Shown here piece by piece: positions 11,683-58,722 of a stretch of DNA of 64,000 nucleotides (within the stretch, counting starts at the first letter, position 1; each line of letters starts with the position of its first letter). The notes beneath the pieces are model-generated. The model searched no databases and was not told where the DNA came from. It saw only the letters and a program-made list of their open reading frames with translations. Source of the DNA: a virus. Made by a program: the position numbers and the translations under genes. The stretch spans positions 63,095 through 127,094 of the IMG/VR virus record IMGVR_UViG_3300005436_000501. One strand, 5' to 3'.

Positions 11683-11749
11683 TGCGAGGCACCCCCACCC
11701 CGCGTGGACTAGGCGTGCGGCGGCGGACTACGGCGCAGGGGGTGGCGTG

Positions 11750-13820: not shown

Positions 13821-13826
13821 GGCCGG

Positions 13827-14168: not shown

Positions 14169-14234
14169 GGCTCGGCTCCCCTTTCGGGTGCGGGTCGGAA
14201 AGGGGTGCGGGCGGGTCGGGGCGTGGCCGGGCGG

Positions 14235-14672: not shown

Positions 14673-14673
14673 G

Positions 14674-15204: not shown

Positions 15205-16085
15205 CGGATCCGGCGTAGCCGCTCGAGCAGCCGCTCGGCCTCGTCGATCAGGCCGGAGCCGTCCTTGCGCGAGTCGTTCTGCCGTGTGCCGCTCGCCTGG
15301 CGCGAGTCCGGGTACGCGTCCTCCGCGGCGGTGTCCGGGCGCAGCAGTTGCGCGATCGTGTAGTTGGTCACCGCGAGCCGCGCGTCGTGCTCCATGTTCG
15401 TGAAGTCGTGCCCGACCGCGTGCGCGAACACGGCGGGCGCCGCCAACGGGACCGCCGTCACCACCGGGGGCACGGCGACCGCGGGTGGCGCGAACGCCGA
15501 GGAGACGGTCACCGTCTCCTCGGCGCCCGGCTCCCAGATCCGGTAGGAGGCGCCCGGCTGGATCCCGGTCGGGTCCGTCACGCTCAAAGACGTGGCGCCC
15601 AGGGATGCGGACGCCGCCAGGGTCGTGGCGACATACCCGGCCGTGTACGTCAGCTGCGCGTACACCTGGCAGCCCGCGCCAGGCGTACCGAACTGGAGCG
15701 ACCCCGACCAGGGGCCGCCCGCGCCGATCGTGATCTCGAGGTTGCGCCCGTCCTCGCTCCACACGCTCGGGTTCGCGATCGTGGTCATCGCCGTGGGCGT
15801 GTAGCCGTAGCCGACCGAGGAGACCGCGATCACAGGCCCGTGATCGGGGTGGATCTTCAGGGTGCCGGTCCGGCTGAAGCGGGTGCGCAGGTTCTGGACG
15901 TTCTGGTGCGCGAGCAGCGGCTGCTCGAGATAGCCGTCCGCCCACGCCGAGGACATCAGCAGCAGGTTGTTCAACTCGGCTGCCTGGTCGGCGGTCAGGG
16001 CGTCGCCGTAGCGCAGGTCGTCCAGGTCCAGGTAGGTGGGGTGGGCGGTGAACGCGGCGACGGACACGAACGGGGTGACGATCAA
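15201..16085 (-). CDS. Head-to-tail adaptor protein
   Basis: LLMSSAWADGYL, LTYTAGY, EAERLLERLRR motifs. Confidence 0.7.
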   Translation of the reverse strand: MIVTPFVSVAAFTAHPTYLDLDDLRYGDALTADQAAELNNLLLMSSAWADGYLEQPLLAHQNVQNLRTRFSRTGTLKIHPDHGPVIAVSSVGYGYTPTAMTTIANPSVWSEDGRNLEITIGAGGPWSGSLQFGTPGAGCQVYAQLTYTAGYVATTLAASASLGATSLSVTDPTGIQPGASYRIWEPGAEETVTVSSAFAPPAVAVPPVVTAVPLAAPAVFAHAVGHDFTNMEHDARLAVTNYTIAQLLRPDTAAEDAYPDSRQASGTRQNDSRKDGSGLIDEAERLLERLRRIR

Positions 16086-36858: not shown

Positions 36859-37049
36859 TGTGATCTCGCTGATCTGTACTCCCGCGATATGAATTGGCTC
36901 AGTCCCATTATCGCAGGTCGGAGACGGCAGAGCGCCCCGCTTTAGGGGCGGGGCGCTCGATGCGGCACTCGGTCTCCGGAGTCGGCGCGCTAGGCGCCCG
37001 TCGAGTGCCGGAACCTGAAAGGGGCGCTGTGCACCCACTGTCCGCGAGG

Positions 37050-37289
37050 TTACGCCACGGGGCGCAACTTCGACAACATCTCATCGCGCCTGCGCTTGCG
37101 TGTCGCGGTCCTGCGGCGCTGGTCGCGCTCGACGCGCATCACGTCGGCGATCATCACGACCCTGCGGCCGTCCGCGGTCCGGTAGGCACTGAGCAGTTTG
37201 AGGTGGATCCAGCGCTGGACGGTGCGCTCGCTGCGGCCGGTCTGCTCGGCGGCCTGAGCGAGGGTGACGGGGATGCCGGTCGGCTTCAC
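37050..37289 (-). CDS. Small HTH DNA-binding protein
   Basis: VTLAQAAEQTGRSERTVQRWI. Confidence 0.7.
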   Translation of the reverse strand: MKPTGIPVTLAQAAEQTGRSERTVQRWIHLKLLSAYRTADGRRVVMIADVMRVERDQRRRTATRKRRRDEMLSKLRPVA

Positions 37290-38107
37290 GCGGCCACGGC
37301 CGGTGCGACGTGTCCGCCGGTCAGCAACTGGATCAGCCACAGGTACTCGGTTTCCTGGTACAACCTGGCGCAGCCGCCGAGCCGTTCGCTGCATTCGACG
37401 TACCAGGCTTTGCCCGCGATGCCCTCTTCTTGGATGAGGGTGAGCATGTCGCAGCTCGGGCAGGGTGCGGGCAGGTGGCGCCGCACGGGCTTGTTCTTGA
37501 CCATGGCGACGGCCACCCGGTGCAGCCGCCAGATCTCGGACGCGAAGTCGCCGGCGCACTCGGGGCGCTGGATCATCGCCGCGTAGTTGGTGTTGAGGTA
37601 CTCGACCGACGCGGCGAGGTCGGCTGCGGGGCCCCCGGTGTCGGCGGCGGCCTGGTGTCCGAGGTGATGCCGCAGGTCGTCTTCCCAGGTGGTGATGGTG
37701 CGGCGGATCTCGTCCTGGTGGTCGGCGCCGGGGCTCGGGCTGGGGGGCACGTCGCTGCGTCCGCGGCGTTCCTCGTCGGCGCTGGCGGTTCTTGTGAGGA
37801 ACTTGACCGACCCGAGTGCTGTGTGGGCGAGGGGGAGTTCGCGCAGGGCTCCGCGGACGACGGCGGCGCATTTGCGGCACAGGACGGGTTCGCCGGGCCA
37901 CGGTTCGATGTCGGGCGCCTGCGGTTCGGCGCCGGTGTACCCGGTTTCGGTCCAGCGGGCGGCGGCTTTGGTGTGGGCGTCGGTGGCTTCGCGCCAGCGG
38001 TTGTTGCAGCGGAAGACGCAGGGACCTTCGGAGGTGATGCGCGGTTCGGGTTCGGGGGCCGGTTCGGGCTGGGAGTGGATCCAGTACGGGCGTTGGTATC
38101 GTGGCAT
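37286..38107 (-). CDS. Zinc-binding phage protein, possible late-gene regulator
   Basis: LCRKC...LRELP, PCPSC...C....C; sits just upstream of late region (function inferred from position). Confidence 0.5.
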   Translation of the reverse strand: MPRYQRPYWIHSQPEPAPEPEPRITSEGPCVFRCNNRWREATDAHTKAAARWTETGYTGAEPQAPDIEPWPGEPVLCRKCAAVVRGALRELPLAHTALGSVKFLTRTASADEERRGRSDVPPSPSPGADHQDEIRRTITTWEDDLRHHLGHQAAADTGGPAADLAASVEYLNTNYAAMIQRPECAGDFASEIWRLHRVAVAMVKNKPVRRHLPAPCPSCDMLTLIQEEGIAGKAWYVECSERLGGCARLYQETEYLWLIQLLTGGHVAPAVAA

Positions 38108-38276
38108 GGCGCGGCTCCCGGGCGTGCGGCTGTACCGTTGGGGAGTCGCCAGCGATCGTGTCGGGCGCCCCGCTGGTCACGGGGCGCCCTCGTGCTGTTG
38201 GTGCGAGTGTGCTGGGTGTTGATCGGCCGTGCAACTTCGATCGGACACGCTCGGACGCGGCCTATCCTGGAACGAC

Positions 38277-38306
38277 GAACCCCGCCACTTCGGATGGCGG
38301 GGTTCG
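38277..38306. terminator. GC hairpin
   Basis: GAACCCCGCCA-CTTCGGA-TGGCGGGGTTC. Confidence 0.5.
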
Positions 38307-38325
38307 GCTTGCGTGCGGGGTACGG

Positions 38326-38583
38326 TCAGGCGTCTTTGGCGCTCTTGAGGTCGGCGACGACGGTGCGCGGGTCGACCGTGGTGGTGGCGAAGTTGTAGCG
38401 CCAGATGTCCAGTGCCTGGCCGAACAGGACGCGGTCCCCGTCCAGGTCGATCGCTTCACGCCAGGTGGCTGCGGGGATCCCGGTCTCGGCTTCGAGGGTT
38501 TCGGCGAGCGCGTCGGCCATGCCGTCGGCGTAGGCGCTGGTGTCGGCGTGCATGTAAACGGTGATGTTCCGGTCGGTGGCCAT
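38326..38583 (-). CDS. Hypothetical protein
   Basis: RBS GAAGG; in operon. Confidence 0.55.
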   Translation of the reverse strand: MATDRNITVYMHADTSAYADGMADALAETLEAETGIPAATWREAIDLDGDRVLFGQALDIWRYNFATTTVDPRTVVADLKSAKDA

Positions 38584-38584
38584 G

Positions 38585-39268
38585 TCAGTCGCCTTCCGTG
38601 GTCGGGGTGTCGCGGAGTTCGAGGTTGCTGGTCTCGTTGTTGCGCGGGTCGCCGTCGCGGTGGTGGACCTGCTTGCCGGACCTCCACGTCCCGGCCGCCC
38701 ACTGCTCGATGTCGGCCAGGTCCCACAGCGGGGTGCGCCCGATGTGGCGGCGCGGTTTCGGCGCCTGGCCGCGGGCGACGTACCCGGTCCAGGTGCCCGG
38801 GGCGATCGGGCGATCGTGCTCGCGCAGCCAGGTCAGGACCGTGTCGCGGGTCATGCCCGTGTCGGCCGCGCCCGCCTCCAGTGAGGGCACGGGTGCGGCG
38901 GGGTGCGCGCCGAGCGGATGCCAGTCGGGGGGGATGCGGCGGGCCTGCTGCTCGAGATATTCGGCGGGGCTCATCGTCGAGGTGGCGGGGTAGTCGGACC
39001 AGCCGCGCCAGGCGCGCCGCTCGGGTTGCGCGGCCTGCGCGTCGGTGTACCACAGGGCCCAGTCGGGGGCGGTGTCGCGGATGGGGCGGTCGCGCTGCAC
39101 CCAGATATCCACGGCGGTGCGCAGCGGGGTGGCGGCGACGGCTTCGACCAGGGCGCGGGCGCGGGGGGTGAGGGTGTCGAGGTCGACGTCTTCGTAGAGG
39201 GCGGCCACGGGGTTGCCGTCGTCGTCGGTGGTGTCGCGGCGCAGTTTGACGCGGACGGTGTTGCCCAT
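38585..39268 (-). CDS. AlpA-like HTH protein with C-terminal HNH-motif tail
   Basis: TWTGYVARGQAPKP...GRTPLW....IEQW then VHHRDGDPRNNETSNLEL. Confidence 0.6.
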   Translation of the reverse strand: MGNTVRVKLRRDTTDDDGNPVAALYEDVDLDTLTPRARALVEAVAATPLRTAVDIWVQRDRPIRDTAPDWALWYTDAQAAQPERRAWRGWSDYPATSTMSPAEYLEQQARRIPPDWHPLGAHPAAPVPSLEAGAADTGMTRDTVLTWLREHDRPIAPGTWTGYVARGQAPKPRRHIGRTPLWDLADIEQWAAGTWRSGKQVHHRDGDPRNNETSNLELRDTPTTEGD

Positions 39269-39444
39269 CAGTCCTCCTGCTCGAGGCGCGCGGCTTCGGC
39301 GTCGAAGGGTTCGGCGAGGGTGACGGGGGTGTCGGTGCGGTAGGCGGTTTCGAGGAGTTCCTGGGGTCCGACGGCGGCGTAGTGGCCGGGGTGTCCGTAG
39401 CGGCGGCCGTCGGCGATTTTGACGGGGATGTCGGCGTTTTCCAT
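39268..39444 (-). CDS. Small hypothetical protein, probably leaderless
   Basis: MENADIPVK; promoter-like TTGGCA-18nt-TACCTT 6 nt upstream. Confidence 0.5.
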   Translation of the reverse strand: MENADIPVKIADGRRYGHPGHYAAVGPQELLETAYRTDTPVTLAEPFDAEAARLEQED

Positions 39445-39505
39445 AACCCCAAGGTACAGCGTGAGGCTGTACAGTGCCAAGCTGTATGGCGGGTCGGGGG
39501 CGGAC

Positions 39506-40153
39506 TCAGCGCGCGAACACCAGCAGCGCGACCGCGCCCAGGCCGAACGCTGGCGCGAAAAACAGCGTCTCCAGCTTGTTCCCGGTGCGCTGGATCACGG
39601 GGAGCATGTAGTGCCGCCGGTGCGGCCAGAGCAGCGGACAGCCCTCTTTGGTCAGACAGTCACCGGCCAGGTGCGCGAGGATCCCGGCCGCGACCGACCA
39701 CGGCAGCCACGACAGATCCGGCAACAATACCCACGTCGCGACCGCGGCGAGGAACCCGAACCCCGAGGACGCGCCCGGAGCCAGCCGAAGCGCGCGAGCC
39801 GCGAACGTGTAGAGCAGGAACAGCGCACCGATCTCGAACCAGCGGCCGAACACCGCGTCGCCGAGCCACGTCAGCAGCGGGACCAGGGCGGCGAACAATA
39901 GCGAATGCGTGGCGTGGCGGTGCCCGCCCGAAAGCCGGTGCACGATCCGGGTCACCGCCTTGCTGACCGGGCCGAACGTAAAGGCGATAGTGGCCGAGTC
40001 GTGGTCAGCATCTGCCAGCAACGCGGCACCCGCAGTGGCCAGCAGACCCGCAGCGACCGCGCCCCAGTGCGGGTGAACACCCACCGTGGGCGCGAGGCTG
40101 CACAGCCCTGCGAACGCGGTGCACCCGGACAGCGCGTGCGAGTGGCCGAGCAT
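39506..40153 (-). CDS. YdjM-like metal-dependent membrane hydrolase
   Basis: MLGHSH, ADADH, HRHATHS, HLAGDCLTKEG.PLLWP. Confidence 0.8.
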   Translation of the reverse strand: MLGHSHALSGCTAFAGLCSLAPTVGVHPHWGAVAAGLLATAGAALLADADHDSATIAFTFGPVSKAVTRIVHRLSGGHRHATHSLLFAALVPLLTWLGDAVFGRWFEIGALFLLYTFAARALRLAPGASSGFGFLAAVATWVLLPDLSWLPWSVAAGILAHLAGDCLTKEGCPLLWPHRRHYMLPVIQRTGNKLETLFFAPAFGLGAVALLVFAR

Positions 40154-40434
40154 CAGGCGGCCTCGTCGATACGTCGCAGGGTCTCGGCCCCGAACGGGTC
40201 CAGGCGCACACCCGGTTTGCGTCCGACGGCGAGGATCTGGTCGAGCAGTTGCCGGTACTCGGCGCGCGCCTCGGGCGGCAGCGCGAACACCTGGGCGCGT
40301 GCGTGCGCGTGGTCGCCGTTGGCGGCGGCGCGCAGCCCGGTCTCAATCAGCGCGCTGACGGCGCCGTCGGCCGGGCCGGCGTATTCGTGCACCTGCCGTT
40401 CGCGCCCGAGCGTGATAGCGGTGATCTCGGCCAT
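40153..40434 (-). CDS. Hypothetical protein
   Basis: RBS AAGGAG; overlaps next gene. Confidence 0.55.
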   Translation of the reverse strand: MAEITAITLGRERQVHEYAGPADGAVSALIETGLRAAANGDHAHARAQVFALPPEARAEYRQLLDQILAVGRKPGVRLDPFGAETLRRIDEAA

Positions 40435-40459
40435 GGTCGTGTCGTCTCCTTCGGGGTGG

Positions 40460-42523
40460 TCAGGCCGCAGCCTGGTAGTCGGTGTCGGCCCACATGCCGG
40501 GGTCGGTGCCCAGCGCCGCGTACACCCCGTGGGTGACGCGCAGGATCCTCCCTGCGTCCACGTCGCGCCTGAGCGCCTGGGAGACGGCGGACGGGTTCAG
40601 TCCGAGTTCGGTCACCAGCGCCCCGGAGGTGACATGCCCCGGGTGCTGCGCGAGGTAGGCGCGGATCAGCTCGCGCGCGCTGCCCACGGCGGGCGTTTCG
40701 CCCTGCTCCGCAGCGTCGCGGGCGGCGGCGGTACCGGATGCCGCACCGACGGCGGGGGCGGCGTCCTGCGTCTGCGCCGCTTTCGCCTCGGCCGTGTCCG
40801 CTGCGGTCGCCAGCGGCGTCAAATGCGCTGTGCTGCCGGCGTCCGCCCAGTCGAACACGGCGTTGTCGTCGAGGAAGAACGTGCGGAACTTCGCCGGCCG
40901 GTCCGCGCCCAGGATGTAACCCAGGCCGAAGGTCTTGGATCCGTCGGGGAACTGCTCCTCCAGCAGTCGCGGGTCGCCCGGCAGCTTCGGGAACGCCCCG
41001 CCCGTGATCGCGTCCTCCGTGCGCAGGCACACCACCGACATGGACGCGAGCAGCGGCCGGATCGTGAACGAGTTGCCGAGCTCCGCGATCGACGGGATCT
41101 GGGTGACCAGGCGCAGCCGCACGCCGCACTTGCGGCCCATCGACACCAGCCGCTCGATCAGCCACTTGGCGCGCGGGTGCGCGAGCACCATCGGCGCCTC
41201 GTCGATGGTGACCGACAGGATCGGCAGGTCGAGGTCCAGGCCGAGCCGCGCGTAGGCGGCCGGGTCGTAGTAGCTCAGTCCCTTGTGTTCGCGGCCCTTG
41301 TCGTCGAACCATTTGACCTGCGCGAGCAGCTTGTTGCGCGCGATCATCTCCGCGAACGCGTCCTCGAGCATCGCCAGGCCCTCGACCGGTCCGCGCGCGA
41401 ACCGGTCGACGCGGTCCTGCCAGTCGGGCAGCGACTGGCCCTCCTGCGGATCGCAGATCCAGGACACGATCAGGTGGCGTCCGTGCGGGTCGGTGGCGTG
41501 GCGTTCGCACAGCAGCGCCTGGTCCAGGTACCGGGACTTGCCGGAGCCCGAGCAGCCGACGACCACTTCCATGTTGGTGCCGGACTTGGGCTCCCAGAAG
41601 CGGATGCGCGCGGGCTGGCCGTTGATGCGCCGCCCGACGGTGGCGCATCCGGTGTCCAGGTCGATGGCGGGCCCGGGGAACGCGACGTTCTCCTGTAGGA
41701 GGTTCGTGGTGAAGATGGCGACGCGGGCGCGGTCTTCGCGCTGGTCGTCCCACCGCTCGAATGAGATCATCTGGCGGGCGGTGCCGCGCTGCGCGGCCAT
41801 GCGCTTGTGCACTGCGAGGGATATCAGGTCGTCGTAGGACTGGCGGTCGGCGTCGAGTTGCACGTCCAGGTATGCGCCCAGCTTGTCGGCGCCCACGGCC
41901 AGGAGCTTGGACCCGGGGGCGAAGCCGCTGCGTTCCGGGGCGGCCTTCGCGGCCCACCAGGCGGTGATCTCTTCGCGTAGCGCGGAGTACTGGTCGCGCT
42001 CGGCCCGGGGCGCGCTGGTGCGCTCCCGGCGGCGAAGGTGTCGCGCCCACCAGGTGCCGGAGGCGGCGAGCGCCCCGGCGCCGAGGACGTCCAGGGCGAG
42101 CGGCGCGGTGGGGGACAGCGCTGTGGCGGCGCCCAGGTAGAGCAGCGCGGCGGTGTAGGCCAGGGCGTAGTAGGCGCGGCGCATCAGCGAGGGCGCGCGG
42201 TGTCGGTCGCGGCGGTAGAGCAGGTATCCGGCGAGCAGGAGTGCGGCGTACAGCAGTGGCCAGCCGAGGGCGGGCCCGTGTGCGGCGCCCTCGGCAGCGG
42301 CGAGCACGACCCCGCCCGCAGCGGCGGGCGCGAACTCCTTCGGGTGTGTGGCCGCGCCCTTGACTGCGGCGACGGTCAGGTCGAGGGCGGCGTGCCCGGC
42401 CCGGCTGGCCCCGGCGCGGGCGAGCGCGCCGAGTTCGTCGGCGATGCGCTCGCCGACGCCGCCGCGCGCCGGGGCCGCGGGGGCGGTGCGGCGCGGCGGG
42501 GGCCGGTAGTCGGTGTCGCGCAT
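40460..42523 (-). CDS. FtsK/SpoIIIE-family TraB-like DNA translocase
   Basis: N-terminal TM helices; Walker A GCSGSGKS; Walker B VTIDEA; MGRKCGV.L.LVTQ; GLGY; C-terminal winged helix; RBS AAGGAGG. Confidence 0.82.
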   Translation of the reverse strand: MRDTDYRPPPRRTAPAAPARGGVGERIADELGALARAGASRAGHAALDLTVAAVKGAATHPKEFAPAAAGGVVLAAAEGAAHGPALGWPLLYAALLLAGYLLYRRDRHRAPSLMRRAYYALAYTAALLYLGAATALSPTAPLALDVLGAGALAASGTWWARHLRRRERTSAPRAERDQYSALREEITAWWAAKAAPERSGFAPGSKLLAVGADKLGAYLDVQLDADRQSYDDLISLAVHKRMAAQRGTARQMISFERWDDQREDRARVAIFTTNLLQENVAFPGPAIDLDTGCATVGRRINGQPARIRFWEPKSGTNMEVVVGCSGSGKSRYLDQALLCERHATDPHGRHLIVSWICDPQEGQSLPDWQDRVDRFARGPVEGLAMLEDAFAEMIARNKLLAQVKWFDDKGREHKGLSYYDPAAYARLGLDLDLPILSVTIDEAPMVLAHPRAKWLIERLVSMGRKCGVRLRLVTQIPSIAELGNSFTIRPLLASMSVVCLRTEDAITGGAFPKLPGDPRLLEEQFPDGSKTFGLGYILGADRPAKFRTFFLDDNAVFDWADAGSTAHLTPLATAADTAEAKAAQTQDAAPAVGAASGTAAARDAAEQGETPAVGSARELIRAYLAQHPGHVTSGALVTELGLNPSAVSQALRRDVDAGRILRVTHGVYAALGTDPGMWADTDYQAAA

Positions 42524-42554
42524 GCCGTGACCTCCTTCGGGTTGGCGGAATTGG

Positions 42555-43109
42555 TCAGTGCTGCCGGAGCGTCGGGGGCGCGCCGTCCGCTTCGGCTGCG
42601 CGCGCCTCGTCGGCCTGGTTGAGCCGCCAGCAGGCGACGGCGTCACCGTGGGACGGCCGACAGTTGGCGTGGTCGACGCGCCCGTCGACAGCGGATGAGA
42701 GCAGCGCCTGGGCCAGGTCGCGCTCGCCCTGGAGCGCGACCACGTTGTGGCGCTCGGCGCCCGCCGTACACGGGCGCAGCGCGGCGAAGACGACCGCGAG
42801 CAGGTGGCGTGACGCGGCGACCGGCATGGCGAGAGCGAGCAGGGTCAAGTCCGGGCACTGCGGAACCTGGGCGGAAAGGACGGTCACCGGCCGGTCGATG
42901 GGCTCGCCGAGCGGATGCGGTTCCCACGCAGGCGATTCGGTGGCGCGCCCGAGAACGCGGGTCCAAAGCGTGGCGACGGCGTCGGGCAGCGGCTGGTTCG
43001 GGTCGGCCGCGAACGGGCGCGTGTCGCGGTGGCGCAGGAAGTCGACGATCGCGATGGACTGCACGGGATCGGCTGCGCCCACGGCGCCGGGGTGGATGGG
43101 GCGGGTCAT
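42555..43109 (-). CDS. Hypothetical protein of the transfer cluster
   Basis: RBS GGAGG; in operon. Confidence 0.5.
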   Translation of the reverse strand: MTRPIHPGAVGAADPVQSIAIVDFLRHRDTRPFAADPNQPLPDAVATLWTRVLGRATESPAWEPHPLGEPIDRPVTVLSAQVPQCPDLTLLALAMPVAASRHLLAVVFAALRPCTAGAERHNVVALQGERDLAQALLSSAVDGRVDHANCRPSHGDAVACWRLNQADEARAAEADGAPPTLRQH

Positions 43110-43134
43110 GGCGGTTCCTCCGGGATGCGGCGCG

Positions 43135-44277
43135 TTAGCTGGCGGGCAGTTGCGGGGCGCCGGCGGCGGGCAGCGCGTCCTGGCCGCCGGTGTCGGCGAC
43201 GCCGTAGAACGCGCCGTGCGCCCCGGAATGCCCGGTCGCCATCGCGGCCTCGGCGTGCGGCATCTGGTGGCTGGCGAGCACGTCGAGCGCGGTGCGCGCG
43301 GTCTCGTGGTAGTTCGCCGCGGCGGACGCCATCACGGACGCGGTCGCGGCGGCGTCGTGGCACTGCGCGGAGAACGTCGCGGTCTGGTCGCGGTAGACCT
43401 GGCCGGCTTCGAGCAGGGCGTGGTAGGCGGCGGTGGACTCGGGGTCGACGCGCAGCATCGCCATCGCGGCGACGGCGTGTTCGAGGGAGGTGGTTTCGTC
43501 GGTGACGCGGGCCGCGGTCTCCCCGGCGAACTCCGCTCCGGCGATCATGGAGGCGGAGGCGGCGGCGGCGTCTTCGGATTCCATGCCGGCGACTTGCGCG
43601 GTCTGGCCGGTGAAGTGGACGAGGGACTCGAGGTCGGTGATGTCGGCGGCCATGGTGTCGGGGTACTCCTGGGGCTTGGGGACGAGGTGAAGGGGGACGC
43701 GGCCGAGTCGGCGCAGGGCGACCAGGATCGGGGTGGGTGCGGCGGGTGCGTCGCCGGGTTCGGTGGCGGCGTCCTCGGGGGCCGGGGCGGGTGCGGTCCC
43801 CGGGCGCGGGGGCGTGTCTCCGGAGCCGGGCGGCGGGGAGTCCGGCCCGGGGGTCGGCCCGGGTGCTGCCGCGGCCCGCGGGCCGCGGGGGGTGTCGGCC
43901 GCGTCCGGGGCGGCGTCGCGTGCGGGGCGTCGTCGTTCGTTCCAGTCGCGGGCGCGGCGCGCGCCGGCTGCGGTGTGGCGGCGTCCGGCCCGGTACAGCT
44001 CGATCCCGGTGGCCCAGCCCAGGGCGAACCCGACGCCGGTGGCCCAGCCGAAGCGGTGCGCGGCGTGCAGGGTGCGGCCGTGCACCAGCGCGCCGAACCG
44101 CCCGGACCGGGTGGTCGGGGCGGTGGCCGCGGCGCCCGCCGCGGTGGCGGGGGCGCCGGAATCGGGGCTCGCGCCACCGGGGGTGCGCAGCGACTCGCGC
44201 ACCCCGGCGGCGGCGGACACCGCCAGCACGATCAGGTAGTAGCCGACGATCGCGTCGAGCAGGTCCTTGAACGTCAT
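43135..44277 (-). CDS. Membrane-anchored protein with Pro-rich linker and Ala-rich helical C-domain (Spd-like)
   Basis: Hydrophobic N-terminus; helical region MAADITDLE...GAFYG; upstream of translocase. Confidence 0.55.
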   Translation of the reverse strand: MTFKDLLDAIVGYYLIVLAVSAAAGVRESLRTPGGASPDSGAPATAAGAAATAPTTRSGRFGALVHGRTLHAAHRFGWATGVGFALGWATGIELYRAGRRHTAAGARRARDWNERRRPARDAAPDAADTPRGPRAAAAPGPTPGPDSPPPGSGDTPPRPGTAPAPAPEDAATEPGDAPAAPTPILVALRRLGRVPLHLVPKPQEYPDTMAADITDLESLVHFTGQTAQVAGMESEDAAAASASMIAGAEFAGETAARVTDETTSLEHAVAAMAMLRVDPESTAAYHALLEAGQVYRDQTATFSAQCHDAAATASVMASAAANYHETARTALDVLASHQMPHAEAAMATGHSGAHGAFYGVADTGGQDALPAAGAPQLPAS

Positions 44278-44286
44278 CGCCGCCCC

Positions 44287-44940
44287 CTACACCAGGTGCG
44301 CGACGAGAGGGCCGACGTGCGCGGCGACGGCGGCGTACACCCAGGTCGCGCCCTGTCCGAAGTAGCCGGGCACGAGGGTGAACAGCATCGGGCCGAGGAA
44401 CACGAGCAGGTCGGCGTCGCCGTGGTGGGCCTTGCCCTCGATCAGGTCGGCGAGCAGGTGCAGGCCGCGCCACAGTGCGAGGATCGCGACGAGGCTGAAT
44501 CCGAGGGTCGCGGCCTGGTGCCCGGCGCCGGGGAACAGGTTCACCAGCCAGTGGAAGGCGCTGTCGGCGCGGCGGGCGCACCACAGCACGATGGTGCCGA
44601 TGAAGGTGCCGGACGCGGCGACGCCGGCGACGGCGAACAGGGCGAGCGCGGTCCATCCGGCGAGGTGGCGCAGCAGGTCCAGGGGTTTCGCGCCGCTGTT
44701 CCCCATGCCGGTGTCGGGTGTCGCGCGGCCCCGGCCCCGGGACGAGGCGGTGGTGCGGCGGCCGCGCAGCCCGCCGCGGATCGCGGTGGCGCGGGAGTTC
44801 AGGGACGCGGCGACGGTGGGTACGCGGCGGCGCAGGATCAGGGCGAGGATGAGGCTGACGGCGGTGAGGCCGAGCAGCGAGACGCTGGTTTGGGCGGGGG
44901 TCAGGCCGGTGGTCATGGCCGGCGGCGCTAGGGCGCGCAT
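44287..44940 (-). CDS. Multi-pass membrane protein (Spd-like)
   Basis: About four hydrophobic segments; RBS GAGGAG. Confidence 0.6.
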   Translation of the reverse strand: MRALAPPAMTTGLTPAQTSVSLLGLTAVSLILALILRRRVPTVAASLNSRATAIRGGLRGRRTTASSRGRGRATPDTGMGNSGAKPLDLLRHLAGWTALALFAVAGVAASGTFIGTIVLWCARRADSAFHWLVNLFPGAGHQAATLGFSLVAILALWRGLHLLADLIEGKAHHGDADLLVFLGPMLFTLVPGYFGQGATWVYAAVAAHVGPLVAHLV

Positions 44941-45117
44941 CGGGGTCTCCTCGATTTCACACCCGTGAACTTCACGGGCGGTTTGGGCGGCGATTCGGGG
45001 GATCTTGCTGGTGGGGCCGATCTTGCCTGCGTGGAGCGGCTGTCAATTTCACTGTGAATTCGTGGCGCGGCGACTGGGCGTGCTTGGCGGCTGGAACCCC
45101 CGGGCGGCACGGGTGGA

Positions 45118-45633
45118 GGGGTGTCACGTGCCGCCCGGGAGCGCTCGGGGGTGTCACCGGTGGGGGTGTCATGAGGCGCGCCGTTCGGGGGTGTCGTCCG
45201 CGTCCCGGGGGGTGTCACCGGCGGGGGTGTCGCTGCGGCGGCGGCTGCGTGTCACGCGCACGTAGACCTTGTCGACGGTGACACCCCGTGCGGCGAGCAG
45301 CGCCACGACGTGGGAGGCGACACGGTCGGGCAGCAGGTCGTCCAGGCGCCGCACGGCCTCCGCGTTGGACATCTCCGCCCAGGCCGGGGGGCCTGCGGCG
45401 TCGAGGACTTTGAGGTCGGCTTCGAAGTCGGCGTGGCTGAGCGGCACGGTGACACCCGTAGCGGGGGGTGTCGCTGCGGCGGTGCGCGATACCCGGGGCT
45501 TGCGGGGTGCGGTGCGGGGCGCTGATACGCGGGGTTTCGCGGGGCGTATCACCCGGGGGGTGTCACTCGCGCGGGGGGTGTCGACGGCCGGGGTATCAGC
45601 GGGGGTGTCGGCTGCGGGCGGCGTGGGGGTGTC
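45118..45633 (-). repeat. Array of 8-bp direct repeats GACACCCC (clt/TRS-like)
   Basis: 11 exact GGGGTGTC copies on + at 45118, 45148, 45163, 45188, 45209, 45224, 45465, 45557, 45575, 45602, 45626, plus variants and an inverted copy at 45280. Confidence 0.75.
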
Positions 45634-46308
45634 CGCTTCGCCGAGGCTGATGCTCAGGCGCACCGCGGCGGACACCTTCCAGCGCCACGCGCGCCCGTGG
45701 GTGTCGCGCAGGGCGGCGATCCGGGCCAGGCGCGCCCGCTCCTGGGCGAGCGCGGCCGGGTAGGAGTTGGTGCGCCACAGCACCATGCGCCGCCACAGCT
45801 TCAGCGTCGGCCAGGGGGACAGCAGCCAGCGGGCGGCGGGGATCGGTTCGCGCAGGTTCGCGTCGCCCTTGAGCGCGGTGCGCCGCACCACGTGCCGCAT
45901 CAGTTCGACGAACATCACCCACACCGACGGCATCAGCACGTGTGCGATGCGCCCGGCCGGGTCGCCCCCTGCGGCGTAGTTGAGGGCGACGGTGCCGAAG
46001 GTCGCGCCGTACACGGTGGCGCGGGCGAGCGGGTGGCTCATGCCGAGGCGGTTGAGGACCAGGTCGACGCCGGAGAACACCAGGACGGTCAGGTCGACGA
46101 CGAGGGGTACGAGCCACGCCCAGCGGGGACCGAAGCTGGGGGTCATGCGCTCGGACACGGCGTGGAAGGACAGGGTCATGCCGGCGACGGCGATGAGGGC
46201 GGCGAGGATCCCGATGACGACGGTGACGGTGGTCCAGCCGGCGCCGAGGGGTTCGGGGTCGTTGTGTGTGTCGTGGGTGGTCATGGCCGCCTCGGTGGTC
46301 GTGGTCAT
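45169..46308 (-). CDS. DUF2637-family membrane protein (plasmid/AICE spread-type)
   Basis: LSFHAV...AWLVPLVVD...TVALN...IPAARWLLSPWPTLKLWRRMVLW; C-terminal HTH-like region. Confidence 0.75.
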   Translation of the reverse strand: MTTTTEAAMTTHDTHNDPEPLGAGWTTVTVVIGILAALIAVAGMTLSFHAVSERMTPSFGPRWAWLVPLVVDLTVLVFSGVDLVLNRLGMSHPLARATVYGATFGTVALNYAAGGDPAGRIAHVLMPSVWVMFVELMRHVVRRTALKGDANLREPIPAARWLLSPWPTLKLWRRMVLWRTNSYPAALAQERARLARIAALRDTHGRAWRWKVSAAVRLSISLGEADTPTPPAADTPADTPAVDTPRASDTPRVIRPAKPRVSAPRTAPRKPRVSRTAAATPPATGVTVPLSHADFEADLKVLDAAGPPAWAEMSNAEAVRRLDDLLPDRVASHVVALLAARGVTVDKVYVRVTRSRRRSDTPAGDTPRDADDTPERRAS

Positions 46309-46430
46309 CGTGGTCGCCTCCTTCGGGACGGTCGGGGCCGGCCGGTGGCGGCCGGGCGGGTGTGGTGGCTACTCAGTGGTCGTGGCCTGGGCGCCGGGGA
46401 AGGCGGTGCGGCCGGTGGTGGTGTGGGTGG

Positions 46431-46637
46431 TCACGGGCGCAGTCCGAGCAGTGCGAGGACTGCGTCGGTGTGCTCGGCGGCGGCTTTCGCGGCGCAGGCG
46501 CGTTCGTCGGGGTGCAGGGTGGGGTCGCGGGCTTCGCGGGTGGCGCGTTGGAAGTCGGCGTCGCGGTCGCGCAGTTCGGTTTCGGCGGCCGGGGTGAGGG
46601 GGTCGGGGGTCGGGCAGTTCTGGGGGTCGGCGGTCAT
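46431..46637 (-). CDS. Small hypothetical protein
   Basis: RBS AAGGAG. Confidence 0.5.
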   Translation of the reverse strand: MTADPQNCPTPDPLTPAAETELRDRDADFQRATREARDPTLHPDERACAAKAAAEHTDAVLALLGLRP

Positions 46638-46652
46638 GGTCAGGCTCCTTGC

Positions 46653-46991
46653 CTAGATCGCGGGAAAACCGTCGAGGGACTGTCCGTAGCCGGGAAGATC
46701 GGCTGCGGTGTCGCGGTGGCTGTTGGCCCGTGCGGCGGCGCGGGCGCGGTCGATGCCGCGGCGGGCTGTCTTCTCGTCCACGCCGAGTGCGGCGGCGAGG
46801 TTGCGGGCGGCGCGGGTGGGGCCGCCGGTGGCGAGGCTGTAGGCGAGGGCGACGTCGGCGGGGGTGTGCGGGGTGGGGTGGCCGTCGAGCAGCCGCTGTG
46901 CAACGACCTCGTCGGCGGGGCCGGCGGGGGTGTCGACGCTCAGGCCCCGGGAGACGACGGTACGGCGCGGGCGGATGTCGGTGGCGGTCAT
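46653..46991 (-). CDS. Small HTH protein
   Basis: DEVVAQRLLDG...LAAALGVDEKTARR. Confidence 0.55.
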   Translation of the reverse strand: MTATDIRPRRTVVSRGLSVDTPAGPADEVVAQRLLDGHPTPHTPADVALAYSLATGGPTRAARNLAAALGVDEKTARRGIDRARAAARANSHRDTAADLPGYGQSLDGFPAI

Positions 46992-47300
46992 AGGACGGGC
47001 GCCTTCCGGCTGGGCGCGGCGGTGATCGTGACGCGCTGCGCGAGGGCCGCGGTGTCGGTGTCGCAGCGGTCGTGCGGGGTGCCGGTCAGGCACGGCACGC
47101 ACACGCTCAGAGTGCGGGTCGGGGTCGCGGTGATCGCGGGGCTCATCGGGTCACCGCCGTCCGGGCGGGGTGTGCCTGCTCGGTGTGGTGGGTCTCGGCG
47201 CGGATCGCGGCGGACGCGGAGGCGTATCCGGCGCGCACGGTGTGGCAGCCGGGGGTGGTGCAGCGGAAGCCGGGGGTGGGGGAGTGGGGCTCGTGGATCG

Positions 47301-47777
47301 TCATCGGGCCACCGTCAGCTTGTCGGCCTCGAGGGTGGCGGTGACGAGTGCGTCGAGCGCCTCGGCGACGGTGATCATGATGTTGTGCTTGAGCACCACG
47401 AACCCGGCGAGTTCGGCCGCGCTCGGGGTCCAGCCGGTGGGGCGGGCGGGGTGGCGCAGCAGCTCGCGGGCGCAGTCCAAGGTGAGGGTGCGGGCGTGGT
47501 CGATCGCAGCCCGGGCGGCGGCGAGGCTGCGGGGCAGCCCTTCGGGCGTCGTGGTGATCCGGGCGGCGGACTCGGCGAGCGACTTGTGGTGGGCGCGGTT
47601 GGCGGCCTGTGCGCGCGCCATGCCGACGCCGAGGTCGAACACGGCCATGGCGTGGCCGGGGGCGGCGGTCTTGCGCGCGTCGCGCAGTCCCGCGGTGTAG
47701 CCGCGCAGGTAGGTCTGGTTGTCGCGCTCCAACTGCTCGGCGCTCTCGCCGGTGATGCTGGGCTGTACCTTGGTCAT
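47301..47777 (-). CDS. Hypothetical protein
   Basis: MTKVQPSI; helical; downstream of Cro-like gene. Confidence 0.5.
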   Translation of the reverse strand: MTKVQPSITGESAEQLERDNQTYLRGYTAGLRDARKTAAPGHAMAVFDLGVGMARAQAANRAHHKSLAESAARITTTPEGLPRSLAAARAAIDHARTLTLDCARELLRHPARPTGWTPSAAELAGFVVLKHNIMITVAEALDALVTATLEADKLTVAR

Positions 47778-48802: not shown

Positions 48803-49141
48803 GTGCGTGTGACCGCCCTGGACACGCAGTACGTCTCCGTGGCTGACGCCCCGTGCGGCTGGTCGGTCGCGTTCATGGTGCAGGTACTGCACGCCCACAG
48901 CCTCGAGATCGCGCAGCGCGAAGCCGACGCGCACGCGTACGGATACGCCGCCGGGCTCGAAGCGGGCCGCGCGCAGGCCGAAGCCGAGATGGACGCCTGG
49001 TGGGCCATGCTCGCCCGCCGCATCAGAGCCGACGCCGACCGGATCCGCAGGCCGATACCCGAACCTGCGGCACGCCCGCAACCGGACGACGCCATGTGGT
49101 TCACGAACGCCGAGTGGGCGAGCTGGGCGGGAACCCCGTGA
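48803..49141 (+). CDS. Hypothetical protein
   Basis: AYGYAAGLEAG; GTGA overlap with helicase; start uncertain. Confidence 0.5.
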   Translation: MRVTALDTQYVSVADAPCGWSVAFMVQVLHAHSLEIAQREADAHAYGYAAGLEAGRAQAEAEMDAWWAMLARRIRADADRIRRPIPEPAARPQPDDAMWFTNAEWASWAGTP

Positions 49142-50379
49142 CCGACATCCTGTCCGCACAACCCGGCGACGCCCAGCAGTTGCGCGACCTCGGCTGGGAC
49201 GAAGCCGACATCAGCCGCCACGCGCCCGAACCCGACGACGAACCCACCGGCGCCGACAGTTGGCGCCCCGTCGACCTCGGCCCGCTGCTCGACGGAAGCT
49301 ACAACCCGCCCGTCCCCACAATCGGCAGACGCGACGACGGCGTAGGTCTGTTCTACCCGGGCCGTATCCACGCCCTCATCAGCGAACCCGAAGCAGGCAA
49401 GACCTGGTTCGCGTGCATGGTCAGCGCCTCGGAGATCGCGCAGGGGAACGAGGTCGTGTTCATCGACTTCGAAGACTCGGCGGCGGGCATCGTGCCGCGC
49501 CTGCTCGACCTCGGCGTGCCCGCGGAGTCGATCCGCGAACGGTTCGTCTACATCCAGCCCGACGCGGCACCAGGACTGGCTGGCATGGTGAGCCTTATGG
49601 AGGCGATCACGTCGCGCACGAGCATCGTGTGGATCGACGGCGTCACCGAGGCCATGTCGCTGTACGGACTGAACCCGCAGGTCGACACCGAGGTCGCCGC
49701 GTTCGGCAAGCGCCTGATGAAGCCGATCGCCAAGACGGGCCCCGCGGTCGCGGTGCTCGACCATGTGGTCAAGAACCAGGATTCGCGCGGCCGGTGGGCC
49801 ACCGGCTCGCAGCACAAGATCTCCGGCCTGAACGGCGCGGCGTACATCCTCACGAACGTGGACCGCTTCGGCGTGGGCTTGAAGGGCCGGTCGCGTGTGT
49901 CGGTGTCCAAGGACCGTCCCGGCCAGGTCCGGCGGCACTGCGTGCGCACGGAGTCGGTGCCCGGCGGCTGGCCGTTCGGAGACATGGTCATCGACTCGCG
50001 GCCCGGCGGGGTGCTCGCCCACCTGTACCCGCCGCCCGAGCGCGCCGCGGCGGCCAGCGCGGACGACGGGCCGCGCCTGCCGCAGGAGGTGATGGAGAAG
50101 GTCTCCAGGCTCTTGGAGGACGCACCCGAGGGGCTGAGCAAGAACGCGGTCGAGACGATGCTCGGCGGTTACGTCAAGAAGGTGCGCACGGCGATCGAAC
50201 TGCTGGACCGGGCCGGCTTCATCGCTGCGAAGGCGGGTGGCGTGGGCAAGCCGACGATCTGCCATTCGGTGCGCCCGTACCGCGTCGGCGCGGACACCTC
50301 GGCTACCTCGGCTATACCTCGTCTGGACCTCGGCGCAGACGAGGCCGACCCAACCTCGGCTACCTCGGCTCCCCTTTAG
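49138..50379 (+). CDS. RecA-fold (AAA_25/RepA-like) replicative helicase
   Basis: SEPEAGKTW Walker A; VFIDFED; WIDGV; VLDHVVK...ATGSQHK; KDRPG. Confidence 0.8.
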   Translation: MTDILSAQPGDAQQLRDLGWDEADISRHAPEPDDEPTGADSWRPVDLGPLLDGSYNPPVPTIGRRDDGVGLFYPGRIHALISEPEAGKTWFACMVSASEIAQGNEVVFIDFEDSAAGIVPRLLDLGVPAESIRERFVYIQPDAAPGLAGMVSLMEAITSRTSIVWIDGVTEAMSLYGLNPQVDTEVAAFGKRLMKPIAKTGPAVAVLDHVVKNQDSRGRWATGSQHKISGLNGAAYILTNVDRFGVGLKGRSRVSVSKDRPGQVRRHCVRTESVPGGWPFGDMVIDSRPGGVLAHLYPPPERAAAASADDGPRLPQEVMEKVSRLLEDAPEGLSKNAVETMLGGYVKKVRTAIELLDRAGFIAAKAGGVGKPTICHSVRPYRVGADTSATSAIPRLDLGADEADPTSATSAPL

Positions 50380-51601: not shown

Positions 51602-51714
51602 CCCGGCCCGAACCCGTTCTTGCGCTCCACGCGATTCAGTACATTGGTTGTGTCCGGCGCATTCGATGATGCGGCGGTGCAGCGGCAGTGCAGTGCCTGA
51701 GGCGGGCGGCCGGA

Positions 51715-52398
51715 ATGGTTGTGGTGGAGAAGTGGACCGGTGAGCGCGCCTGCCTGCTGCAAGCCGCTCTGCGCGCCACGAACGAATCGTTCGCGCACAG
51801 GTTGGGGATCGCGGTGCGCACCGTGGCGGCCTGGCACGCGGACCCCGCACTGGTACCGCGCGGCGAGGTGCAGGCGATCCTCGACACCGCCCTGGAGCAG
51901 GCCCCGGACGCCGCGATCCAGCGGTTCGAGGCGCTGCTGTTCACCCCGCTGCCGTCCTTCAAGCCCCCGGCCACTCAGCGCGGCCACGCCCAGCCCCTGA
52001 CGGTCGCTGTGGCGGTCGTGCGCCGAGGCGACAGCGTGCTGCTCGTGTGCAGGCGCGGCGGCGAGGGCGGCGGTCTGCGGTGGCAGTTCCCCGCCGGTGT
52101 CGTGAAGCCCGGCGCGGACCCGGCCGCGGTCGCCGTCGCGGAGACCCTGGGCGAGACCGGCGTGCACGCCGCGGTCGCCCGACCACTGGGCCGACGTGTG
52201 CATCCGCTGACCGGGGTCGTGTGCGAGTACCTGCTGTGCGACTACCTGACCGGGGACGCACGCAACGCCGACGAACTGGAGAACCTGGACGTCGCGTGGG
52301 CGCCCGTCGGTAGCCTGGGCAGGTTCATCCCGCCCGAGACCGTGTATCCGCCGATCCTCGACGCCCTGGAGATGCCCCGTGACCGAGCCGACGACTGA
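51715..52398 (+). CDS. XRE-HTH + Nudix fusion protein
   Basis: WTGERACLLQAALR...FAHRLGIAVRTVAAW; WQFPAGVVKPG...AETLGETG. Confidence 0.8.
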   Translation: MVVVEKWTGERACLLQAALRATNESFAHRLGIAVRTVAAWHADPALVPRGEVQAILDTALEQAPDAAIQRFEALLFTPLPSFKPPATQRGHAQPLTVAVAVVRRGDSVLLVCRRGGEGGGLRWQFPAGVVKPGADPAAVAVAETLGETGVHAAVARPLGRRVHPLTGVVCEYLLCDYLTGDARNADELENLDVAWAPVGSLGRFIPPETVYPPILDALEMPRDRADD

Positions 52399-52798
52399 GT
52401 CCGCGGCCAAGCCGCCGATCGCCGCCGCGGTCATCGTCAAGGACGGCCGGGTGCTCATGGTGCGCCGCAGGGTCGCCGAAGGGACGCTGTCGTGGCAGTT
52501 CCCGGCCGGGGCGGTCGAGGCGGGGGAGAACGCGGCGGACGCGGCGGTGCGCGAAACCGCCGAAGAGACCGGGCTGAAGGTGTGGGCCGCAGAGTTTCTC
52601 GGGCAGAGGCTGCATCCCGCGACCGGGCGCCGCATGACGTACGTCGCGTGCGACGTCCTCGACGGGGAAGCCGTGGTCGGGGATCCCGAGGAGTTGGACG
52701 CGGTCGAGTGGGTGGACGCCGCGCGGCTGGCCGAGCTCGTGCCGCTCGGGTTCTTCGCCCCGGTGCAGGCGTACCTCGACGAGGCGCTCGCCGTCTGA
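52379..52798 (+). CDS. Nudix hydrolase
   Basis: Intact Nudix box GAVEAGENAADAAVRETAEETGL. Confidence 0.88.
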   Translation: MTEPTTESAAKPPIAAAVIVKDGRVLMVRRRVAEGTLSWQFPAGAVEAGENAADAAVRETAEETGLKVWAAEFLGQRLHPATGRRMTYVACDVLDGEAVVGDPEELDAVEWVDAARLAELVPLGFFAPVQAYLDEALAV

Positions 52799-57829: not shown

Positions 57830-58570
57830 CTACTCGTGGACCGGCAGGTCGTACTCCAGCAGGTAGCGGTCTCCGCCGAACACCATCACCAGCGCCTCGA
57901 TCGGAAGCCGTCCGTCCGTGTATGTGACCCGCAGCAGCCGAAGCACGGGGGTGCCGGGCGGCAGCCGCAACTCGCGGGACTCGCTCGCGGTCGGCATACG
58001 CGTCTGCACCCACTCCTTCGCAGGATGGCGGGGAATGTAGCCGAGCCTGCGCAGCGCGGCGAGCGAGCCGCCCTTCAGCCCGCTGGGGGAGTCGAGCTCC
58101 GTCCCGCGTGCGATCTCCACCGGGAAGTACGAGTCGACCAGCTCGATCGGCTTGCCCTTCTCGACCATCAGCCGACTGCGGCGTACCACGCGCACGCCCT
58201 CGTCCAGCCCCAGCTTCTCGGCGACGTCGCTTGGGGGCACCACCTCGGAGATGCCGAGCAGGCGGGAGGGTGCGCGGAATCGGGCGGGCTCGTCCCCCGG
58301 TGGGGGCGACGTGTAGTCGGCCGACCTGCTAACGGTCCGCTCGACGAACCGGACGAACACGCCCTTGCCCTGCTTGGACTCGACGAGGCCGGCGGCCTTC
58401 AGCGCGCGCACCGCGGCCTGGGCGGTGGAGTTCGAGGTGTCGTACTGCTCGATCAGGGCGCTCACGGACGGGAGCGCCTCGCCGGGCTGGATCTCGCCGT
58501 TCTCGATCCGTGCACGCAGGTCGTTGGCGATCTGGACGTAGGCCGGAGTCTCGCCCCCGAGCTCGGACAT
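57830..58570 (-). CDS. GntR/HutC-family regulator with UTRA domain (KorSA/TraR-like)
   Basis: YVQIANDLRARI..GE..PG.ALPS...L...GLV....GKGVFV; MPTASE...L.LP.GTPVL...R. Confidence 0.88.
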   Translation of the reverse strand: MSELGGETPAYVQIANDLRARIENGEIQPGEALPSVSALIEQYDTSNSTAQAAVRALKAAGLVESKQGKGVFVRFVERTVSRSADYTSPPPGDEPARFRAPSRLLGISEVVPPSDVAEKLGLDEGVRVVRRSRLMVEKGKPIELVDSYFPVEIARGTELDSPSGLKGGSLAALRRLGYIPRHPAKEWVQTRMPTASESRELRLPPGTPVLRLLRVTYTDGRLPIEALVMVFGGDRYLLEYDLPVHE

Positions 58571-58722
58571 GACGGCGCTCGCCTTCTTTCGTCACCATGC
58601 TGGCATAGCGCCATTAGCGCTATAGCGCTCTACGCTACACCGGATGTTGCATCAAGTGATCGTTGTGAAATTCACGAGGGCGCAGGCCCCGGGCGGGTAG
58701 CCAAGCGCGCCGGGGTCGCGCC

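Follow-up and report, generated by a model that had tools for sequence, protein, structure and literature searches.

The 64,000-nt stretch analysed here, called the window (positions 63,095 to 127,094 of the viral record IMGVR_UViG_3300005436_000501), carries on its minus strand eleven exact copies of the 8-mer GACACCCC within 516 bp (45118-45633). This array begins inside a gene for a DUF2637 membrane protein, passes its stop codon and ends in the intergenic region ahead of the next genes of a putative transfer operon. We propose that it is a cis-acting DNA site of the double-strand DNA transfer module of the element, most likely of the clt type (a transfer locus that acts in cis). Its [C/T]GACACCCC words would be read by the C-terminal winged helix of a TraB-like hexameric translocase encoded downstream, and this pump would assemble on the element's own DNA, which it would transport to hyphae nearby. 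Such a site would be written into two predicted disordered stretches of the coding sequence for the DUF2637 protein and continue into intergenic DNA, the DNA word imposing Asp-Thr-Pro (DTP) on a tolerant part of the protein. That the array functions at the DNA level appears probable to us; that it is the loading site of TraB, we put at about 50%, both the choice of TraB as binder and the role in transfer being drawn from sequence and from analogy with known plasmids. Most likely, the array is a variant of the known clt-type sites, in a phage-like mobile element of soil actinomycetes, an uncultured relative of known plasmid-phages. Coordinates are those of the whole window unless stated, WIN designates the window's own locus, and L-numbers designate the loci of relatives.

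A count over both strands gives 21 copies of GACACCCC in the window, where 4.64 are expected (standard deviation 2.13, largest 12), and 0 of 100 shuffles reached 21. A count against a GC-matched background had been suggested by an earlier, sequence-only reading of the window, and the outcome with shuffles favours the array. The whole 127,094-bp record holds 23 minus-strand and 4 plus-strand copies. In any 520-bp span of that record no 8-mer is more densely clustered, and the next unrelated word, GCGGCGGC, reaches 6 copies. For the shorter word GACACCC, 12 copies were counted in the 843-bp region extending from the linker of the protein to 300 bp past the stop codon (shuffle mean 4.7, maximum 11; 0 of 200 shuffles reached 12). 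All eleven same-strand copies in about 515 bp that the sequence-only reading had reported were recovered, on the minus strand, which is the coding one, the coordinates of that reading being those of the plus strand. Their minus-strand starts are 45633, 45609, 45582, 45564, 45472, 45231, 45216, 45195, 45170, 45155 and 45125. Ten of the eleven extend to the 9-mer GACACCCCC; five are of the TGACACC type, six of the CGACACC type.

Successive copies are separated by 24, 27, 18, 92, 241, 15, 21, 25, 15 and 30 nt, an irregular series with unrelated flanks. No tandem period was found in the array by Tandem Repeats Finder, which reported only two short, unrelated rows, and the array as a tandem repeat was set aside on this ground. 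The array as an RNA element was likewise rejected, a search of 43500-47500 against Rfam giving no match at E up to 1.

The reading frames of the copies favour a constraint on the DNA itself. Seven copies are in frame and encode DTP, one lies in another frame, one sits on the TGA stop and two are intergenic, so that 4 of the 11 are not DTP codons. The sequence-only reading had DTP encoded by the copies inside the gene, which holds for seven, the copy at 45472 reading ATPP; the two copies that it placed beyond the stop (45155 and 45125) and the one overlapping it (45170) are exactly there. At the background rate of the record, the probability that three exact copies fall by chance in the approximately 230 nt from the stop onwards is about 4e-7. 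With copies in frame 0 (seven), in frame 2 (one) and at or past the stop (three), and with spacings from 15 to 241, the array does not have the properties of a coding tandem repeat. Codon choice adds to this. The gene encodes eight DTP, of which seven are written GACACCCCC and one GATACCCCG, whereas the codon usage of the record predicts GACACCCCC in 0.19 of DTP (P = 6e-5). Elsewhere in the record, 11 DTP occur in six spellings and only 2 of them are GACACCCCC (Fisher 0.005 versus the gene). The 9-mer codons are thus homogenised within the gene.

A candidate reader is encoded in the same operon direction about 2.5 kb downstream of the array end, with three family-less open reading frames (ORFs) in between. 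The translocase has a Walker A motif (GCSGSGKS, residue 364) and, at its C terminus, a winged helix-turn-helix (wHTH; residues 660-710), where AbiEi_4 (7.6e-6) and MarR_2 match. Its motor is recognised by Pfam FtsK_SpoIIIE at 2.6e-4 (21 bits, cut-off 24), and NCBIfam plasmid_TraB matches at 1.5e-12, with 46.8 bits versus a cut-off of 800. Homologues span 84-94% of the ORF (P0137, 60%) and are 606-697 aa long (P0137, 423); since they are shorter and cover only this part, the true start is probably near Met42.

Sites of the proposed kind are described for other elements in the excerpts of the papers cited here. TraB proteins recognise 8-bp direct repeats in clt via their wHTH, as the sequence-only reading had taken for established, and the clt repeats, or TraB recognition sequences (TRS), of pSVH1 and other Streptomyces plasmids are read by helix alpha3 of that domain (Vogelmann et al. 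2011, as cited in PMC4447253, PMC4170104 and PMC3583192). By its sequence the array is clt-like, and the closest likeness is with the clt of pWTY27, where TraA footprints four TGACACC direct repeats in a locus overlapping 16 bp of the traA 3' end (PMC3583192). The two sites have in common the core direct repeats, the passage from the 3' end of a gene into non-coding DNA and an FtsK-like Tra partner. They differ in that the pWTY27 clt overlaps traA itself, with 16 bp inside and 159 bp outside, and combines 4 copies with a second repeat and inverted repeats, whereas the window has 11 copies over 516 bp, most of them within the DUF2637 gene, which lies upstream of the translocase at about 2.5 kb. 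The clt/TRS sites of pSVH1 and other Streptomyces plasmids resemble the array in their 8-bp, element-specific direct repeats and in the hexameric FtsK-like pump with its C-terminal wHTH; the pSVH1 TRS has another motif than the window's. The membrane protein also has a possible counterpart: SpdB2, a spread protein of pSVH1, is integral to the membrane, has a separate C-terminal domain and is encoded just upstream of traB in one operon (PMC4447253). The likeness of the window protein to SpdB2 is suggested by the Pfam DUF2637 match, gene order and architecture.

Frame-independent arrays recur at the same place in relatives. Twenty-seven DUF2637 loci were scored (out of 29, two being too short), and L024 and L034, which duplicate L003 and L006, were left out. 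The most frequent 7-mer in the region from the linker to the intergenic DNA was compared with 200 shuffles, a locus passing when at most 5 of 200 did as well, and loci were classed by the downstream gene. With a TraB-like gene downstream, 5 of 10 loci pass (WIN, L004, L015, L016 and L031), whereas among chromosomal loci adjoining gcvP none of 10 does, the lowest value being 72/200 (Fisher 0.03); many of the tested loci are related and several gcvP loci are near-duplicates, so that these counts are non-independent. Seven of the 27 loci have no class, and one of them, L014, passes. The gcvP-adjoining loci (L008, L009, L010, L013, L017, L018 and L026-L029) come from Actinocrinis-type genomes, where the chromosomal DUF2637 gene lies directly upstream of gcvP (glycine dehydrogenase); these genes have a long linker and no word array.

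A second set was anchored on traB and comprised 42 loci (L031, L054, L056 and L073 left out), each compared with 60 shuffles. An array beyond all 60 shuffles was found in the 4 kb upstream of traB in 19 of 42 loci, and in the 4 kb downstream in 4 (Fisher 4e-4); here too many loci are related and the counts non-independent. Most of the upstream arrays are located 2.3-3.5 kb ahead of traB, in the 3' portion of a gene for a membrane protein. When 20 arrays were examined, 17 were found to use at least two frames and three a single one (L057, L063 and L078); two of the 17, L058 (7:1) and L075 (9:1), are nearly single-frame and look protein-level like L057. The words differ from one element to another: CGACACG in L042 (14 copies, frames 2/7/2, 3 past the stop), CCGAACC in L004 (frames 3/3/2), CCGGCCA in L015 (4/1/1), CGGACAC in L016 (2/2/2, 3 past the stop), CCGGACC in L044 (3/4/2), CAGAGC in L003 (5 within the gene, 5 past the stop, 5 inverted) and CGACACC in L014 (6 within the gene, 2 past the stop). 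What a protein-level repeat looks like is illustrated by the DUF2637 gene of pFP3, where CCGAAGC occurs nine times, 9/9 in one frame and with a 21-bp period, as a coiled-coil coding repeat, unlike the irregular array of the window.

Two named plasmids show the same habit of arrays within membrane-protein genes near traB. On the Kitasatospora plasmid NZ_CP108210.1 (L081:3059-3649), CGCGAGG is present 12 times, in frames 8:4, in a gene that lies 4 kb upstream of traB and encodes a membrane protein rich in ER. On the Micromonospora plasmid NZ_CP107937.1 (L082:10470-11181), CCGATCG occurs 15 times in three frames, encoding TDR and DRS peptides, in a membrane-protein gene just downstream of traB.

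Several observations weigh against this interpretation as a DNA site read by TraB. Some concern the protein. At the level of the 8-mer the codon test is weak (P = 0.045; Fisher 0.059). GAC-ACC-CC is the commonest spelling of DTP, at 0.52 per site. The orthologue in L002 (72% identical) has six DTP spelt six ways, 2 of 6 with GACACCCC, and additionally two out-of-frame GCGACACCC; that in L023 (69%) has three, spelt three ways, 1 of 3 with GACACCCC. The motif DDTP[E/Q] is kept in the tail of eight close protein relatives. Because orthologues keep DTP with scrambled codons and relatives keep DDTP[E/Q], DTP has some persistence at the protein level. Scrambled codons in homologues were what the sequence-only reading had named as evidence that would speak against it, and L002 and L023 partly show them; its idea of a DNA-level constraint is supported by the non-coding and out-of-frame copies and by the homogenised codons, and is weakened by these two orthologues. 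Moreover, the last three copies, from the stop onwards, share a frame, the +1 frame, in which they would encode DTP; they may derive from a former or frameshifted longer coding tail.

Other difficulties concern the partner and the place. The assignment to TraB is distant, not that of an equivalog, as the scores are below both the Pfam and the NCBIfam cut-offs, and a profile of TraB relatives gave no match when compared with solved structures. Just half of the TraB-linked DUF2637 loci pass the shuffle test. The clt sites described in the excerpts are located at traB/traA or in non-coding DNA rather than within an spdB2-like gene, and none of the literature passages found places a clt inside an spdB2/DUF2637 gene; these passages do not cover the key TRS papers and their supplements, where such a case may be in print.

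Finally, the word and the TraB recognition helix, compared by sequence, do not co-vary cleanly. The TraB of L042, 50% identical to the window's, has the helix NSTVSQALKRD versus PSAVSQALRRD, and both arrays share a GACAC core; the L042 array sits in the linker of a membrane-protein gene homologous to the window's. Similar helices are found in L041 (TraB 55%, NSAVSQAIKRE) and L081 (PSTVSQTLRKA), with CGCGAG arrays in unrelated membrane-protein genes. In L002 the TraB is 28% identical and has another helix, yet the words are GACAC-type, with decayed spelling. Joint exchange of the 8-mer and the wHTH, which the sequence-only reading had put forward as a check, is not cleanly seen: word and helix go together in WIN and L042, and part in L041, L081 and L002. 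Its view of the array as the cognate site of the translocase gains from the TraB-like wHTH gene downstream, the pWTY27 precedent and the arrays of relatives, and draws no clear support from helix covariation.

Among the four informative loci, the type of motif goes with the membrane protein in all 4 and with the TraB helix in only 2. The C-terminal domains of WIN, L002 and L042 are homologous, and their words are of the GACAC type; in L041 an unrelated membrane protein is accompanied by CGCGAGC. By sequence, then, the word follows the gene that contains it, which fits mere linkage, decay after a TraB swap (L002), or the C-terminal domain of the membrane protein as the reader. The latter would make the array a cis site read by the DUF2637 protein itself, or by another protein of the module, and used as a membrane or septum tether that feeds or assists the TraB pore. 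parS sites inside parB/spo0J are a similar self-contained arrangement. Besides the 4/4 association, which physical linkage alone would explain, this possibility, an unlikely one in our judgement, draws on the clear helix-turn-helix (HTH) character of the C-terminal domains of L014, L015 and L016 (HTH_11 2.7e-7, HTH_3 4e-5), and on database relatives of the DUF2637 protein, some of which carry HTH_23, HTH_31 or HTH_11. The C-terminal domain of the window's protein, modelled alone, is predicted to fold confidently as a small basic helical bundle (predicted local distance difference test (pLDDT) score about 90 for residues 11-70 in a model of 95 residues). A family scan of this domain gave no HTH match, only ACT at 0.006, and its fold had no match at E <= 0.001, the best Foldseek row being the PEX14 N-domain at E = 1.3; the weak rows mix this domain with several HTH domains, a result that agrees with either the presence or the absence of DNA binding. 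SpdB2 of pSVH1 does bind double-stranded DNA, and its C-terminal domain contacts the TraB wHTH, although the binding is reported as non-specific (PMC4447253). A broader version, in which membrane proteins read their own words across a whole lineage of large (about 115-133 kb) tailed phage-plasmids of acid-soil actinomycetes and in many further actinomycete transfer modules, is less likely still. The array would then be a self-encoded, membrane-anchored centromere handing the genome to the TraB pore, the phage would spread through the mycelium without particles, and peptides such as DTP and TDR would be mere imprints.

Alternatively, the array could lack any function at the DNA level and only reflect a disordered, DTP-rich linker of low complexity, its codons made alike by recent slippage or conversion and its post-stop copies being remnants of a longer tail. 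The one frame shared by 7 of the 8 in-gene copies, the common GAC-ACC-CC spelling, the persistence of DTP with scrambled codons and the mutual frame of the last three copies all agree with this, as do the protein-level repeats at the same place in pFP3 and L057/L058/L075. The use of the exact 9-mer is nevertheless far above codon expectation, the copies have no period, no unit longer than the word and no related flanks, and one is in another frame. The stop position, too, is conserved in relatives, and multi-frame arrays of unrelated words occupy the same place in many relatives and are absent from the gcvP-linked paralogues, long as their linkers are. In the +1 frame, an ORF of 96 codons (44928-45218, minus strand) overlaps the gene end and reads the three at- and post-stop copies as DTP. 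The G+C content at third codon positions after the stop is 0.67 (0.65-0.75 across all three frames of the intergenic region), because of which this ORF is probably non-coding. We hold this origin as a protein by-product to be improbable, about to the same degree as reading by the DUF2637 protein. Much less credit still goes to a role in replication or regulation, in which the array would serve as iterons for a RepA-like helicase gene at a distance of 3.2 kb, as a partition centromere, or as an extended operator of a GntR regulator. The RepA-bound iteron of pWTY27 does consist of short, 7-8-bp direct repeats (PMC3583192), and the array lies between the transfer operon and the RepA-like AAA_25 gene (48853-50379), its end preceding an operator-like palindrome by about 70 nt. 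However, the arrays of relatives stay with the membrane-protein gene upstream of traB, whatever flanks the other side, the GntR-type site is a different word that is also present at the regulator's own gene, and no ParA/ParB gene adjoins the array among the window ORFs scanned.

Should the clt interpretation hold, it would have several consequences. Few clt sites of TraB-type conjugation have been mapped. If linker-coding arrays are loading sites, clt would become predictable from sequence in many actinomycete plasmids, actinomycete integrative and conjugative elements (AICEs) and phage-plasmids, because element-specific words are easy to find. Pairs of word and reader-domain specificity could then be read off for mobilisation tools, and the array would show clearly how the peptide sequence of a disordered protein segment can be set by a DNA site. 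A further question that it touches is whether large elements of actinophage type travel by conjugation in addition to particles.

Table 1. Position of the array, of its parts and of the genes and sites around it in the window.
Feature	Position	Strand	Basis or remark
Array, 11 x GACACCCC	45118..45633	-	word count, shuffles
Sub-cluster 1, four in-frame DTP copies	45557..45633	-	codes part of predicted disordered linker (residues 226-290)
One-mismatch copy GATACCCC	45597-45590	-	within array
One-mismatch copy GAAACCCC	45538-45531	-	within array
One-mismatch copy GACACCCA	45705-45698	-	just outside array
Out-of-frame copy, GCG ACA CCC CCC = ATPP	45465..45472	-	18-nt stretch in common with in-frame copy at 45231
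Single inverted copy GACACCCC	45280..45287	+	codons for conserved RGVT, C-terminal domain; same place in L002
Sub-cluster 2, three in-frame copies (SDTP, GDTP, DDTP)	45188..45231	-	predicted disordered C-terminal tail (residues 361-379)
Three TGACACC-type copies outside reading frame	45118..45170	-	stop-overlapping 45170-45163; intergenic 45155-45148 and 45125-45118
DUF2637 gene, 379 aa, SpdB2-like architecture	45169..46308	-	Pfam
Intergenic region before next operon genes	44941..45168	-	last two copies and two GTGAA/TTCAC palindromes
Palindrome TTCACnGTGAA	45048..45058	.	same intergenic region
Palindrome GTGAAnTTCAC, perfect	44965..44975	.	about 25 nt before ATG of next gene
ORF, 217 aa, first after array	44287..44940	-	no family match; possible spread gene, by position
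ORF, 380 aa	43135..44277	-	no family match
ORF, 184 aa	42555..43109	-	no family match
TraB-like FtsK/SpoIIIE-type translocase, 728 aa	40460..42646	-	Pfam, NCBIfam, Walker A
GntR/UTRA (HutC-type) regulator	57830..58570	-	family scans

The inverted copy listed in Table 1 is probably incidental, since it falls in the conserved RGVT codons and recurs at the same place in L002. The DUF2637 protein matches Pfam PF10935 at 7e-20 (71.9 bits, cut-off 22.8) and phrog_29003 at 2e-28. Its predicted architecture consists of a helical N-terminal domain, the disordered linker, a four-helix C-terminal domain (291-360) and the disordered tail. In the AlphaFold2 model of the whole protein, which is of low confidence (mean pLDDT 54.5), long N-terminal helices span residues 23-59, 66-87, 93-112 and 117-147, and both repeat clusters fall within predicted disordered segments flanking the confidently folded 291-360 domain. 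Comparison of the whole-protein fold, by Foldseek and a wider structure search, gave generic helical matches only.

The perfect palindrome of the intergenic region recurs at 58665-58675, beside the GntR gene. Sites matching GTGAAnTTCAC with at most one mismatch number 3 versus 0.66 expected, and 4 of 100 shuffles reach 3. Judging from the palindromes, these are probably the operators of the GntR repressor; the TraR/KorA proteins, which repress Streptomyces transfer operons, belong to the GntR/UTRA family (PMC4447253). At the place equivalent to the palindromes of the window, L041 has GTGAACTTCAC. A consensus scan of 44700-45400 detected no promoter or terminator.

The strand distribution of the related word YGACACS was also considered. 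KOPS (FtsK-orienting polar sequences) and SRS (SpoIIIE recognition sequences) are 8-mers read by the C-terminal winged helix of FtsK/SpoIIIE pumps. They share with the window a strand-skewed word and a winged-helix pump, but the window's words are clustered at one locus, not spread along a replichore. Over the whole record, YGACACS occurs 143 times on the minus strand versus 64 on the plus strand, and 24 versus 1 times in the 10-kb bin of the transfer module, the array being excluded from that bin. Outside the array, the word is densest in the transfer module (about 37000-47000). Sense and antisense occurrences stand at 74:21 in minus-strand genes and at 19:15 in plus-strand genes. The skew is largely tied to gene orientation, and a KOPS-like polarity was set aside for this reason; the antisense share in plus-strand genes hints at some polarity beyond coding.

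As to the element itself, the window encodes a terminase (8e-110), a portal (2e-77) and a tape-measure protein (1e-70), together with protease and minor-tail genes. In the first half of the record, genes for SSB, RecT-like and Ro60-like proteins are accompanied by many unknown ORFs. A scan of 58 further ORFs, of which 49 belong to this half, revealed no host housekeeping gene. A Ro60/TROVE and vWA protein gene is at record positions 13628-15301, outside the window. A phage module and a plasmid- or AICE-like set thus lie on one record, at window positions 2195-30225 and 39506-61043. The second set comprises TraB-like, DUF2637, GntR repressor, two NUDIX, excisionase-like, prim-pol with helicase, and RepA-like AAA_25 genes. 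The two NUDIX genes are adjacent or overlapping (51688-52798, plus strand). The transfer inhibitor Pif of pSAM2 is a Nudix protein.

Phage structural and packaging genes and a TraB-type transfer gene are found on one replicon, the combination that defines a plasmid-phage in terms of genes, and by its sequence the record looks like a member of an uncultured lineage of plasmid-phages. The contigs that carry relatives cluster at about 115-133 kb; a homologue of the tape-measure gene is present in 3 of 5 related viral records. In the excerpts, pZL12 and pFP4 are Streptomyces plasmid-phages that conjugate and form particles (PMC4170104, PMC3583192, PMC4487206), and SpdB2 homologues are noted on actinophages (PMC4447253). 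pFP3 (NC_023067.1) resembles the window in having tailed-phage genes, a GntR regulator, DUF2637 and an FtsK/SpoIIIE gene on one replicon. The window differs from pZL12, pFP4 and pFP3 by its 127-kb record and by its proteins, which are 35-40% identical or less, and its kin are uncultured, about 115-133 kb, with likely hosts resembling Actinocrinis/Actinospica, unlike the named Streptomyces plasmid-phages. The TraB of the window had no match in isolated phages or in four Actinocrinis-type genomes; as a single-protein query it also found none in viral contigs, where an alignment query then gave 38 loci. In Streptomyces phage Gilgamesh (L001), an isolated phage of similar size (129 kb), a DUF2637 membrane-protein gene, a hypothetical gene and the gene of a 561-aa AAA ATPase follow one another at 8851-12371.

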